Assembly: GCA_964016885.1 (NCBI GenBank)
Contig: OZ024743.1
Location: 81,158,001-81,222,000, forward strand
Direction of reading: 5' to 3'
Origin: Eledone cirrhosa
Lineage: Eukaryota
DNA: 64,000 nucleotides
In this document: positions 4,141 to 33,622 of the stretch, one piece after another
Position numbering within the stretch: the stretch's first letter is position 1
How the letters are laid out: every line of letters starts with the position of its first letter
Translations under genes and position numbers: made by a program
Notes under the pieces: generated by a model
Databases searched by the model: none
Told to the model about the DNA's origin: nothing
What the model saw: only the letters and a program-made list of their open reading frames with translations

Positions 4141-4348
4141 ATAGAAATGGCTTCTACAGGACTAGAACTGTTTCATTCGGTAGAAATCATCAGGAAGCCA
4201 GGTGAAATCATCAGGCTTCCTGATGATTTCTACCGAATCAAATAGTTCTAGTCCTGTAGAAGCCATTCTATATTAAATATTCATACTCTGCTTTGTATTC
4301 AGTACCTTACTTACTGTGGTTACCCCCGATTGAACCCGGGATAAACTT
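4141..4348 (+). mobile_element. Short hammerhead element (family H1): 5' inverted copy plus sense copy ending at (TA)n
   Basis: 4141-4199 is the reverse complement of 4214-4272; same family at 27172-27305 and 35206-35340. Confidence 0.85.
4149..4199 (-). ncRNA. Type I hammerhead ribozyme, intact core
   Basis: Minus strand: GGCTTC-CTGATGA-tttc tacc gaat-GAAA-CAG ttctagtc CTG-TA-GAAGCC; the + copy at 4214-4264 has GAAA mutated to CAAA. Confidence 0.85.
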
Positions 4349-5289
4349 ATATATATATATATATATATGTGCCCGCGCATGTGTGTGTGTGTGTATGTGA
4401 CAAAGAGAGATCTGTGAATATTATGCACAGACCAATCTATCTGAAAAGTGTCCATACAATTTCCATACACCCAATATTCATCACACAGCTCCATTAGAAT
4501 CATGGTCAATGATACACAGTCTGATCGAACAAGAGATCCTATGATTGAGAAATAAAATTTCTTAATCATAATTATAATTGTTAAAAAAAATTAATCATTT
4601 TTACATCGCTTCATCCAAATTTAGAAATTAGGTCGAAATTGAAAATGGAGATTTTCTCATAATTTTATCGATAATATTTCCATTCACCTCTCAAACTCTA
4701 CATTAAATATTTCAGTTAATGTTCAATGAAAAAAATGAAATTTACTTCATGAAAATATACAAGGAATTTAGATGTAAATATTTTACATCTGAAACATTGG
4801 AAATATTGAAAGCTTTTAGTTTTTAGTCATTATAAATGTATTTATTAAAACTCGCGATATATATATATATATATATATATATATATATATATATATATAT
4901 ATATATATATATATATATATATATATATATAATATATATATATATGTATGTATGTATGTATGTATGTATGTATGTATGTATGTATGTATGTATGTATGTA
5001 TGTATACATGTATATATATTTATATTCAGTATGTATGTATGCATGTATGTAAGTATGTATGTGTGTATGTATGTATGTATGCGTGTATAAGTGCGTGTAA
5101 CGCATGATTTTACTTTTAAGCGAACCAACCATAATCCCTTTCTAGAAATTTCTGAAATACTATTTAGCGACGTGTCAATATAGATATATTCAACTCCTCA
5201 CACTTGGCATTTGTTTCAATCCCATGTCAAAGCACCTGGATGACATATGTACATATTGAAATACACATATATGCTGTGGTAGTGAACTT

Positions 5290-6150
5290 GAAATCAAAGG
5301 GTTTACAAAAAGAAAACAGTGAAGACAACACGGCACGAGACTGTATAATATCGGTTATTTCGGGTAAAAAAAGATAACAGTAAAACAGATAAAAAATCAA
5401 ACAGAAGAAAATTCCGCAATACGGGAGCAACTTCCGGGGTAACTCGTAGAGAAAGCTCCCAGAATGTCATGGTAAATCTAACCGCTAGGGCAAGAGTCCC
5501 CTCCCAGTTGTCTGCCTCCCACCGGCAGAGCCAAACACAGACCAGTGACATCCACTCTGACCTCGTCAATATCATACACCTTTCAACAAACTGGTTCGAA
5601 GGAAGCACTTTCCGCTTCACCACGATTTTCCTATTCAAGTGAAACCGGAAAATTTAATCAGGAATTCACCGAGGATAACATTCCTTATTTTCAAACCTTT
5701 CAACGCGTCCACCACCAGATCCCTTACAACATGACCACCAGACAGATAAAAGCAGCCTGCCTTTCCAAGCTAATGATAGGTGGTGGGATGATCTTCAGGA
5801 TGGACTCAGCTGGTAGCTGGATCTGTCCAACACGTGTCCATGATCCTCGGCCGTAAACAAGTGTTGTCAGTCCTACTGCACGGTAAACTCTAACTTTATT
5901 TTTCAGTGATATACTTCAAACACCTCATAGTAAATGATGTAGTTTGCCAAAAACATCAGTTGCTTTGTTGATGCGCCTGACGATCTCGTTGTTCAGGGAT
6001 GCAGAGGGCTCCACCTTACTGCCAAGGTAGGTAAAATAGTTCACATACTTCAGATCCAACCCATCATCTGCGTTAGTAAGATGGAGTTGTCCATGCCTTG
6101 TCTGTCCCTACTTATCGTCGTTTACTGGTTGGTAGAGGAGGGCTCTTTGA
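5290..6150 (-). pseudogene. RTE-like LINE 3' fragment (RT C-terminal part)
   Basis: Minus strand reads LKYVNYFTYLGSKV...NEIVRRINKA and RAVGLTTLVYG...SWT, typical post-RT motifs, with frameshifts. Confidence 0.65.
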
Positions 6151-6399
6151 TTCATGAACAAACCCAGTTTTCTTAATGCGACCCTTAATTCTTAAGGGAA
6201 TTCACACAGTGGTTCCAACGTTTTTTTCCACGGAAGACATGTTATGTGTGAATCTCTTTAGCTCATAGGTTACAATCTTTCATATGTTTTCCACAGTCCC
6301 AAAACAATGACGCTTTAAGTTCGATTTCAAATTAGAAAAGAAATAGAAAGCCCACGAATCTAGAACTAGTTGGTATGGTGAATGTGGAAGAGTGGGAAT

Positions 6400-7355
6400 G
6401 TGTTTCTTAACGAGAAATTATTTAATTAAAAGTGCAGTATCCAATCTCCTTCTATGTACTTTCGGACTCACTGGATATGTTTTCGAAGTCGTTCCAAGAC
6501 ATCTTTTAGAAGGTGCGATTAATTGTCTGTCCTGGAGACGAGAACTCTTTGTGACAATCACATGGCTGTCGAAAAAAATGATAATTATCATTTTGACTTT
6601 GGATCGGCTCATGTGTGCTTTCTTCAGCCAAAGAAAATTTTTAGTATGCCTCGCATGACTTTTCTGTTTTGTCTCTCGATCGTATTGGAACACGTATGAT
6701 TCATCTCCTGTTATTAGTTTATCCAAGAAATTTGGCTTCATTTCGAATCTTTCTAGCAAATCCTGACAAATTTCTAGCCGGTTCGCTTTTTGCTCCACAG
6801 AAAAATGAGCACGAGTTTTGCACTGATTCTTTGCGTGTGCAAATCATATTAAAATTCAGTGAACTGCATTTTTATCCAAATCCGTTTCTTCTGTAATAAT
6901 TCAAACACATAACTGGTGATGTTTCGCGATAACCACTCGTATCACTTCCACATGTTCTTCAATTGTTGACGAGATTGGTCTTTCAGAACAAGATACGTTT
7001 TCAACATATTCTCGGCACACTTTAAAAGATTTGTACCACATAAAAACCTTACTTCAGGAGAGGGTGACATCTCTATAAATCGGTGTTAAACATTTAATTG
7101 TTTCGGGGGCAGATTTGTTGAGTTTCATACAAACTTTATCGCGTGTCTTTGTTCAATACTTTCCTGCATTGCAAAGGTAAAAAAACGTCTGTACATAAAT
7201 GGCAATAACTCACGACTGGCTCAATCGATCAAGTTGGAAGAAGTATTTATGTTCAGCCAAAGTCATAACCAACACGCATATATACCTCAACGAGGTGCTC
7301 TATTACCATGTCGTACGTTGGAAAACCAGTTATTTTATATTTCAGACAAACCTCG
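6400..7355 (-). mobile_element. Decayed mariner transposon
   Basis: N-terminal IEQRHAIKF..KLNKSA..ETI (~7160), EQKANRLEICQDLL...LITGDESYVFQYDRETKQKS, SKVKMIIIIFFD; TIR-like CGAGGTTTGTCTGAAA at ~7355. Confidence 0.85.
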
Positions 7356-32109: not shown

Positions 32110-32503
32110 TATCTCTCATTCCCTTCTTTAGGTGCCACTTTAGAAGGAGAATCAGAGTGTAGAGAGAGGCACTGTACTCCAGTAAATTTACTGAGAGGTG
32201 GGTGAACGTGGGAAAAATGGCCCGAGTGATTGGGCCTTTTCTGTATATAAACCTGTAGGTTGAAGATGAAAGCAAATTGAGGAAGGAAACACTTGCACAA
32301 CCCGCTCCTGAATTAGAGTGTTGTTCTATCGACGGGGTATTAAACAACCCATTTGTGGTGCCCCCCACCCTCCTATTGGGGATTTCGATTGTCATATTGG
32401 TTTGTTTAAACATTTTTTTTTTTACGAGATTGTATGTAAAATCCCTGGCATATGTCTTTGTTTTGTCCCTTTTTCTTCTGCGCCGTTGTGGCTAACAAAG
32501 AAA
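32110..32503 (+). mobile_element. Probable LINE 3' end (ORF2 C-terminus and UTR)
   Basis: FFRCHFRRRIRV*REALYSSKFTERWVNVGKMARV resembles L1/Tx1-type C-termini; assignment from memory only. Confidence 0.4.
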
Positions 32504-32927
32504 TCTCTCTCTCTCTCTCTCTCTCTCTCTCTCTATATATATATATATATATATATATATATATATATATACATAAATCAGTGAACACATGTATAGAAGA
32601 TTATTTCTCCTTGTTTACACACCTAAATAACCCCCGCCCCTGTCTTACGCTGTCTTTCACTCGCTTTTTCTCCCTCTCACACACACACAGACTCTCTCTC
32701 TATATATATATAATGTATATTAAACAACACACTATAATTACCTCATTACCCGAGGTTTCCCGAATAGGATGAACACAAGAGACGTCCGTATTCGTTCGTC
32801 AGATATGGCAATATAACATAGTGAGATATTTGAAAAAATAGCTCATCAAGAAAGGACAAAAAATATAAATAAAAGTAATAAGACAAAAAATATATAAAAC
32901 TTCAACACTTATATAAATATATATATA

Positions 32928-33002
32928 TTTGGTTGTAATTCCCGCCGTTGTTATAATTTGTTAGTTTTCAAAAACGGCGGGAATTTATGTTGCAACCTAA
33001 TA
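32928..33002. mobile_element. Second copy of the mariner-type MITE
   Basis: TTGGTTGTAATTCCCGCCGTT...AACGGCGGGAATTTATGTTGCAACCTAAT. Confidence 0.8.
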
Positions 33003-33020
33003 CATATATATATATATATA

Positions 33021-33622
33021 GCGGCGATGAATTAGTTTTGCGAGGTTTTTTATATGAAATCGTGTGTCGAAACAAATATTGTTATACTTGGGGAGGGTCA
33101 TATTTGTGTAATATTGCCAGAATTAATAACAGAATACACTCACTGTTTGGTTGGTTTTCGCTTCTCGCTGTCTTTTATATCGGTAATCTAACTTACTCGG
33201 TCCTCAATGCTGCCATTGACTGACCGACGGTCAAAAATAATACAGATACAATATAGACGCAAACACATATATATAGTTTATCATAAATCTTTCGTTGTAC
33301 ATCTGCAACATCGTCAGTGGTGTTATATTTTCCTCCTGTTGTGTTGTATGTCTACGCCATTTTTATTCAGTCTGTTGAATATATGACGATGTTGCAGATG
33401 TGCAACGAAAGATTTATGATAAACTATATATATGTGTTTGTGTCTATATTGTATCTGTATTATTTTTGACCGTCGGTCAGTCAATGGCAACATTGAGGAC
33501 CGAGTAAGTTAGATTACCGATATAAAAGACAGCGAGAAGCGAAAACCAACCAAACAGTGAGTGTTTTCTGTTATTAATTCTGGCAATATTACACAAATAT
33601 GACCCTCCCCAAGTATAACAAT
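33021..33622 (-). mobile_element. Penelope-like terminal region with 5' inversion, related to the 30389 terminus
   Basis: Arms 33078-33316 and 33384-33622; shares GAAATCGTGTGT..ATTGTTATACTT.GGGAGGGTCAT with 30427-30471; hammerhead core CTGACGA-tGTTGCA..TACAAC-GAAA-GATT-TA on the minus strand at ~33279-33322. Confidence 0.82.

Follow-up and report, generated by a model that had tools for sequence, protein, structure and literature searches.

We analyzed a single 64,000-nt stretch of Eledone cirrhosa DNA (contig OZ024743.1; here called the window), in which ten inserts between 4139 and 33624 have an inverted part: nine duplicating inversions and the non-duplicating 27172. We are confident that these inserts were made by the reverse transcriptase (RT)/GIY-YIG protein of a Penelope-like element (PLE), acting on (TA)n targets. 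In three families the outer end of the inverted arm lies at a fixed second 3' end, and in two of these (B and C) a solo copy ends there as well. We propose that both target ends prime reverse transcription, that one cDNA snaps back and is extended into a sense strand, and that this strand pairs with the other cDNA, a reading to which we give about an even chance.

The window is AT-rich, microsatellite-rich DNA of animal type. Inserts were found by self-BLAST of the window after simple-repeat masking and are named by position (Table 1). A first-pass annotation had named eight inserts and had added two palindromes that it called symmetric (26225 and 27495). All of these exist near where it had placed them, both by self-BLAST and in the table of arms. 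The arms of the nine duplicating inversions are 95 to 100% identical, with 26 substitutions in 1,608 bp. Fold-back chimeras from sequencing or assembly could leave identical arms, as found in 21455 and 24692 only. However, the other seven of nine arm pairs differ by 1 to 9 substitutions, the arms stop at element-specific ends and never take in flanking unique DNA, and their polarity is not random. An artefact of this kind is in our view extremely improbable.

Hammerhead ribozymes were searched with a type I descriptor, in an exact-core version over positions 1 to 40000 and in a relaxed, scored version. The exact-core version gave 11 matches, versus 0 in 10 Markov shuffles, and the relaxed version gave 17 top matches, versus 0.00 expected per 40 kb. 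A scan of 36000 to 64000 returned nothing above noise. The descriptor orients 4141, 21455, 24692, 26225, 27495, and 27893. For 30389, the GIY-YIG frame and a hammerhead at 30635 are both on the − strand; this hammerhead is on the open reading frame (ORF) strand and is type I and sense, as in PLE terminal repeats. An antisense hammerhead at 30424 (+) was rejected, as its core has no G8. We oriented 33021 by its homology to the 3' end of 30389 and by a weaker hammerhead, which scored 9.3 (0.5 such matches expected per 40 kb). A hammerhead 3' half-core alone orients 24367, and family alignment orients 27172. The markers of 24367 and 33021 are the weakest.

Using these markers, we asked whether the arms meet at their 5' ends (head-to-head, divergent) or at their 3' ends. 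All ten oriented inverted inserts were head-to-head, with the 3' ends pointing outward (10/10; binomial P = 0.001, or P = 0.004 for the eight inserts named in the first-pass annotation alone). Five local palindromes with no orientation marker (29568, 29659, 32930, 36080, and 50158) were left uncounted. The earlier claim that the inverted segment lies 5' of the sense copy is thus borne out in its polarity, but 27172 is a non-duplicating inversion and has no inverted copy. Outward-facing hammerheads resolve the orientation of 26225 and 27495, which had been called ambiguous; these palindromes are also not symmetric, their long arms being 64 and 87 nt longer. A single architectural rule covers only part of the set: 10 of 14 oriented copies have an inversion, and four hammerhead-bearing copies have no inverted part. 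Head-to-head polarity follows from any mechanism that is primed at 3' ends.

Nearly all outer ends (19 of 20) lie within 10 nt of (TA)4+, and the remaining end abuts (CT)n. Therefore, the 3' end of the sense copy is at a microsatellite, as had been noted, but so is the other outer end. For ends defined by homology, and not by TA adjacency, the count within 10 nt was 12/12 against a baseline of 5.4%. Element ends and TA flanks overlap by a mean of 2.6 nt versus 1.0 expected (P = 0.0003, n = 12). Since fragile (TA)n arrays stand beside every insert, host repair or replication could have acted after ordinary insertion, by a break near (TA)n, fold-back, and template switching, with the element machinery uninvolved. 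A 98%-identical, microsatellite-like palindrome with no hammerhead at 36080 to 36357 would fit such an origin. However, the inverted arms consist of element sequence only, are always head-to-head, and end at family-fixed sites, and no local inverted arm accompanies the four dispersed SINE-like (short interspersed element) copies of the window. We consider host repair very improbable.

The second 3' end was located by comparing copies. In family B, the 3' end of the solo copy at 31863 coincides with the end of the short arm of 27495. In family C, the solo copy at 34696 has its 3' end where the inverted arm of 33021 ends, and 30389 and the long arm of 33021 run 55 to 57 nt beyond it. In family A, the distal end is common to three copies, and at the proximal end the short arm of 4141 and the inverted piece of 27172 end within ~4 nt of each other, where the tail of 27172 begins. 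With 27172 excluded from the offset and spacer tests because it is non-duplicating, the two ends are offset by 55, 64, 73, 75 (modulo the unit), 77, 87, 282, 447, and 877 nt. Six of the nine fall inside one 33-nt window, 55 to 87 nt upstream of the main end (scan-corrected P = 0.003 under a uniform null). The arms of families B and C contain 8 and 7 TA-like sites in all; therefore, TA homology alone does not choose the end.

The centers of the palindromes are short. The nine duplicating inversions have spacers of 0, 0, 1, 1, 8, 13, 14, 67, and 115 nt, and seven of the nine are ≤14 nt, versus 0.9 expected with independent 5' ends (0 of 200,000 simulations reached seven). Such short centers suggest that a DNA 3' end folded back with hardly any pairing, as in cDNA snap-back. 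The center of 4141 has an extra 12-bp hairpin with a 3-nt loop, which shows intramolecular fold-back. At the 24692 junction, the native context holds a 3-bp inverted repeat whose 8-nt loop is on the short arm, and at the 21455 junction there is ~1 nt of overlap. Head-to-head repeats with junction palindromes are also described in the accessible part of PMC3846280, where self-priming is proposed for a rotifer Penelope. Self-priming on an antisense RNA template, followed by integration of the preformed hairpin, would give this same geometry and allow a spacer on either arm. We judge it very unlikely here: the hammerheads and tandem arrays are on the sense strand of the long arm, and self-priming alone leaves the two fixed 3' ends common to solo copies unexplained.

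In the mechanism that we favor, an endonuclease would nick the (TA)n target, which is self-complementary, on both strands. Both free 3' ends would then prime cDNA, one at the distal start of the family and the other at a proximal start 55 to 87 nt upstream, so that the two fixed ends in the sequence would correspond to RT starts. Another PLE, Poseidon, behaves comparably in vitro: AT-rich DNA is nicked and extended on both strands, and the genomic tail is bounded by two sites at which reverse transcription begins (PMC11167929). Because two antisense cDNAs of the same polarity cannot pair, one cDNA would have to snap back via a very short stem, producing a sense strand that pairs with the other cDNA. 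Flap trimming and gap filling would follow. The product would be a head-to-head palindrome with a short center, a one-sided tail, and TA at both ends, and snap-back would fix the short center without both cDNAs stopping together. Partial outcomes would include 30389, with snap-back but no second start; 27172, in which the second end was primed but no snap-back followed; and the four solo copies, which would have had neither. Snap-back of either cDNA would directly give the spacer on the short arm of 24692. The first-pass annotation had offered fold-back or second-strand priming, which was right in outline, but the data suggest both within one event and not as alternatives. We infer all of these steps; none was observed directly.

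Snap-back by itself would already explain much of this. One primed cDNA would fold and copy itself, and the second strand, stopped or cut at a sequence-defined site (by a protein bound on the tail or by endonuclease resolution), would be joined to the other (TA)n end. Spacers are short in 7/9 inserts, arms are near-identical, and 21455, 30389, and 33021 have their spacer on the long arm. The short arm of 30389 ends inside the ORF, far from the second end of its family. Tails are ascribed to endonuclease-mediated resolution in the accessible part of PMC8557442. There is also a precedent in R2, for which the accessible part of PMC11371274 documents cDNA snap-back at 5' junctions, with antisense element sequence at the junction and nested inverted duplication as the result. 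However, as described there, R2 lacks the feature seen here of a second family-fixed 3' end bounding the inverted arm. Snap-back alone could not yield 27172 unless a deletion followed, it requires a later spacer flip in 24692, and for solo copies the proximal end is itself the primary 3' end. We regard it as possible but rather doubtful.

Twin priming without fold-back would also start cDNAs from both target ends, on the same RNA by displacement or on two RNAs in a dimer, and join their 3' ends by self-complementary microhomology. L1 twin priming gives non-duplicating inversions, and the layout of 27172 is L1-like. To our knowledge, no second family-fixed 3' end bounds the L1 inverted arm. The center of 27893 is a native 4-bp palindrome and that of 24692 a 3-bp repeat. 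In PMC11167929, both strands undergo extension and a dimer is predicted. However, the two cDNAs would have to stop ≤14 nt apart in 7/9 inserts despite arm lengths that differ up to 19-fold (1,796 versus 93 nt), and the inner hairpin at 4141 does not fit. We consider twin priming alone unlikely.

Several points weigh against two-ended priming with a snap-back bridge. In three of nine inserts (21455, 27893, and 30389), the short arm is not at the 55- to 87-nt offset. The native context of 27893 is a bare 4-bp palindrome with no stem for intramolecular snap-back. If two RNAs were used, mismatches might be enriched in the outer arms, and we found no such enrichment (26 in 1,608 bp; Kolmogorov-Smirnov P = 0.25). 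Published PLE starts are without target homology (PMC11167929), unlike the slight TA overlap here. For 24367, 26225, and 27495 there is no second tailed copy, and TA adjacency delimits the tail. The nulls for spacers and offsets are our own uniform models, and the ten inverted inserts of this one window belong to ~8 families and so are not fully independent. As for a signal in the tails, the motif described next was derived post hoc from these same tails, RNAalifold on six tail starts gave no consensus structure, and only two of six tails fold better than shuffles.

Several tails share a motif, RCTC-N8-18-GAGYRC. It has six exact matches in the window, and five of these are sense-strand sites within the tails, including one with a compensatory change. 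In the four inserts with a measured second end, its start is 3 to 12 nt past the proximal end (with a mismatch in one insert); 0.6% of random positions have such a neighbor. In a search of the window, the motif was missing from family C and from the three tandem arrays. We treat it as a lead, not a result. Tentatively, and with less than even confidence by a wide measure, we suggest that the snap-back-bridged, two-ended PLE integration could be joined to a shared RCTC...GAGYRC stem-loop, which would recruit unrelated hammerhead RNAs, including circular retrozymes, and position the second start. If this were true, inverted pseudo-long terminal repeats (pLTRs), tails, and palindromic centers would be explained in one step, a cis signal for trans-mobilization would be identified, and retrozymes would steadily supply TA-rich animal genomes with long hairpins.

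The link to PLEs comes from 30389. Its read-through translation has a VxSIRC...YIGET core followed by the 3' untranslated region (UTR). The GIY-YIG match in Pfam has an E value of 0.0022 and 18.7 bits, below the curated cutoff of 22.6. The element retains only the last ~170 codons, with a stop and a later frameshift, and ends before the RT core. Upstream of GIY-YIG it has a C-X4-CxxC linker, which fits the CX2-5CxxC linker that defines Neptune/Nematis clade PLEs in the accessible part of PMC8557442, as well as internal cysteines and histidines of CCHH type. By those definitions, 30389 classifies as a Neptune-like PLE. It shares with the Neptune clade the C-terminal GIY-YIG, the linker, the CCHH residues, a sense hammerhead within the 3' UTR, and the TA target. 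A homologue search with a 111-aa piece of 30389 found none among 18 candidates, and a Pfam scan of the open-frame pieces found no PLE domain. The coding fragment had been said to link the noncoding families to PLE machinery. It is head-to-head like the others, but its sequence ties extend to 33021 and 34696 only, both related to its 3' end, and the other families have no self-BLAST match to it. Their link to PLEs is architectural.

The 570-, 469-, and 312-mers have 3, 2, and 2 type I hammerhead cores in tandem, in near-identical units. Their only frames of ≥80 aa are short (80 to 103 aa; domain content was not scanned). Judged by sequence, these arrays fit the definition of non-LTR retrozymes. 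Single sub-unit stubs make up 4141, 24367, 26225, 27172, and 27495. Of the single sub-unit copies, 4141, 24367, 26225, 27495, and 33021 have no tandem units of the retrozyme kind and are better interpreted as 3' ends of 5'-truncated PLEs or as short derivatives that are non-autonomous. The set would thus comprise 5'-truncated PLE 3' ends and protein-free hammerhead tandems (retrozymes) mobilized in trans. Metazoan non-LTR retrozymes, in the accessible parts of PMC7229834 and bioRxiv 10.64898/2026.07.22.740005, share with these arrays protein-free tandems whose near-identical, low-GC units each have one type I hammerhead, as well as co-occurrence with PLEs. In contrast, the 469- and 570-bp units exceed the 150 to 450 bp quoted there, and every array here has a head-to-head inverted arm, which those parts of the two papers do not describe. 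Insertion starting at the hammerhead cleavage site was rejected, as only 21455 begins ≤5 nt from it.

The observed architecture (inverted 5' copy, tail, TA target) is the known PLE layout, which is non-random and ordinary for PLEs. That PLE insertions have 5' inverted copies and partial tandems is already published, as the first-pass annotation had said (PMC8557442 and PMC3846280, in their accessible parts). Together with the accessible part of PMC8969392, these papers describe inserts of endonuclease-containing (EN+) PLEs with 5' truncation, partial tandems, an inverted 5'-truncated copy at the 5' end, a head-to-head junction palindrome, extension of one end, a (TA)n target or bias, and a near-3' hammerhead, all shared here. 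Inverted pLTRs are a curation cue in PMC8969392, and PLE hammerheads are covered in PMC4209133, again as far as the accessible parts go. The published one-sided tails are 30 to 40 bp, versus 55 to 87 nt in 6/9 inserts here, and a ~30-nt offset occurs only in 27893, on the inverted side. Unlike the EN+ PLE copies in those parts, most inserts here are 130- to 600-bp stubs with no ORF, and target site duplications are unreadable in (TA)n.

Poseidon PAc (PMC11167929) belongs to a different clade. It has in common with these inserts two tail-delimiting starts, cutting and extension of both strands, an AT-rich target, and no start at the hammerhead cleavage site. Its starts are in an AC-rich stem-loop without target homology, whereas here there are the slight TA overlap of ends and the RCTC...GAGYRC motif. 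The main text is silent on an inverted copy and leaves unresolved the origin of PLE tandem and inverted structures, which is a named open question in the accessible part of PMC8557442. In a literature search of incomplete coverage that excluded supplements, we found no description of inverted arms on retrozyme tandems, of 55- to 87-nt tails tied to solo-copy ends, or of the tail motif. The cluster provides ten junctions with readable centers and ends and ties the inverted-arm end to a second family-fixed 3' end. It also offers a candidate cis motif, makes competing integration models testable, and gives structural evidence that the PLE route inserts protein-free hammerhead tandems.

The density of inserts is local. 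Thirteen PLE/hammerhead inserts make up 8,013 of 13,887 bp (58%) of 21455 to 35341. This suggests that an expanding (TA)n field serves as a self-reinforcing sink for insertions. Several of these inserts are parted by TA runs alone.

Searches in other data were of limited yield. An Rfam scan of the window gave, among the matches listed, mostly microRNA-model matches on palindromes or microsatellites, all below the gathering score, and Rfam on the 469-mer gave only sub-threshold HH9 matches (31.8 bits versus 52 required). A hammerhead pattern scan of metagenome contigs returned 28 loci, 0 of them with (TA)5+ and 2 with short (27- to 28-nt) matches to the window, and so no further copies. One of these contigs (L024:1033-1762) has two identical type I hammerheads spaced 705 nt apart and is unrelated to the window. 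A search of sequencing runs listed 24, of which 18 had part of the 469-mer insert and 4 (from 2 studies) had at least half of its words; there was no RNA run among those listed, and we did not use this search as evidence.

Table 1. Inserts and tail motif sites in the window, with local inverted repeats from the masked self-BLAST
Name	Feature	Position	Strand	Local inverted repeat	Details
4141	Family A insert	4139..4346	+	4139-4273	Inverted arm 4139-4199; long arm 4214-4346; 73-nt tail 4274-4346 ending at (TA)n; core 4220 in long arm mutated, core 4193 (−) in inverted arm intact; inner hairpin 4204-4230
21455	570-bp hammerhead tandem repeat	21455..23342	+	21455-21755	~3.15 units 21547-23342; cores 22048, 22618, 23188; 93-bp arm 21455-21547 identical to 21663-21755; 115-nt spacer; (TA)n both sides
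24367	Stub	24367..24565	+	24367-24485	59-bp arms; 1-nt center 24426; hammerhead 3' half per arm; ~80-nt tail 24486-24565
24692	469-bp hammerhead tandem repeat	24692..26104	−	24692-26104	2.1 units 24692-25665; cores 25021, 25490; + arm 25674-26104, core 25849, 431/431 identical; 8-nt spacer
26225	Palindrome	26160..26489	−	26224-26489	No spacer, center 26356/26357; 64-nt tail 26160-26223 on long arm; one hammerhead per arm, 26309 (−) and 26404 (+)
27172	Family A non-duplicating inversion	27174..27303	−		80-nt tail alone on − (27174-27253) joined to hammerhead segment on + (27254-27303); (TA)n on one side, (CT)n on the other
27495	Family B palindrome	27408..27879	−	27495-27879	1-nt spacer 27687; arm hammerhead 27775 (+); 87-nt tail 27408-27494 on long arm
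27893	312-bp hammerhead tandem repeat	27892..28780	+	27892-28183	2.4 units 28036-28780; cores 28297, 28609; 146-bp arm 27892-28037, no spacer
30389	Family C 5'-truncated Neptune-like PLE	30390..31784	−	31267-31784	253-bp inverted arm 31532-31784; 13-nt G/A-run spacer; thumb end, linker, C-terminal GIY-YIG with in-frame stop, 3' UTR, sense hammerhead 30635, 57-nt tail
31863	Solo hammerhead copy, family B relative	31863..32031	+		No inversion, no tail
32713	Solo hammerhead copy	32713..32916	−		Core 32802; no inversion; (TA)n both sides; boundaries approximate
33021	Family C-related noncoding palindrome	33021..33624	−	33076-33624	Long arm 33021-33383; 55-nt tail; 67-nt spacer; inverted arm 33384-33624; one weak hammerhead per arm
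34696	Solo family C 3'-UTR copy	34696..34900	−		Decayed hammerhead core; no inversion, no tail
35206	Solo family A copy	35206..35341	+		Hammerhead 35212; full tail; no inversion
	RCTC-N-GAGYRC motif	24494..24519	+		Start of tail
	RCTC-N-GAGYRC motif	4285	+		1 mismatch
	RCTC-N-GAGYRC motif	26220-26198	−		Compensatory GCTC/GAGC
	RCTC-N-GAGYRC motif	27235-27215	−		
	RCTC-N-GAGYRC motif	27492-27471	−		
	RCTC-N-GAGYRC motif	35279-35299	+		

A second, longer PLE is at 36723 to 38769 (−), with an RT (YRDD motif) plus a GIY-YIG at the C terminus, and is interrupted by stops and frameshifts. Its linker (CxC-X5-C) and CxxC/CxH motifs match the Hydra description in the accessible part of PMC8557442, and it has 10 relatives at E < 1e-35. 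There is (TA)n near its 5' side, no clear hammerhead, and a loose CTC...GAGTAC look-alike near 36477. At its apparent 3' end is the palindrome at 36080 to 36357, made of degenerate CA/TA microsatellite with arms of 135 and 125 bp and an 18-nt spacer. Counted as part of the neighboring PLE, this palindrome would have tail-to-tail polarity; it looks instead like duplicated target DNA and may be a snap-back of the target end itself before element joining.

Other hairpins stand among the inserts. At 29659 to 29859, a 26-bp inverted arm and a 54-bp inner palindrome open a 180-bp insert between TA runs. This double hairpin resembles 4141; it has no hammerhead and hence no orientation. Short imperfect hairpins at 29566 to 29641 and 32930 to 33003 are 82%-identical copies in opposite orientation, each between TA runs, and the hairpin looks native to that family. 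An old palindrome at 50158 to 50269, centered on a short TA run and with no hammerhead, has arms that are 75% identical.

The dispersed repeat without local inverted arms is 110 to 170 bp long and 87 to 93% identical (16516 to 16690, 23696 to 23805, 38977 to 39089, and 48989 to 49158); we take it to resemble an octopus SINE tail. A decayed frame at 6418 to 6843 (−), with no Pfam support, resembles a mariner transposase. The C2H2 zinc-finger frame at 20479 to 20976 (+) (Pfam E = 2.6e-06) ends near a (TATG)n run and is probably the 3' end of a long interspersed element (LINE) ORF. A long degenerate (ACC)n-type array occupies 39600 to 44500, and a large higher-order tandem satellite occupies 52500 to 64000.

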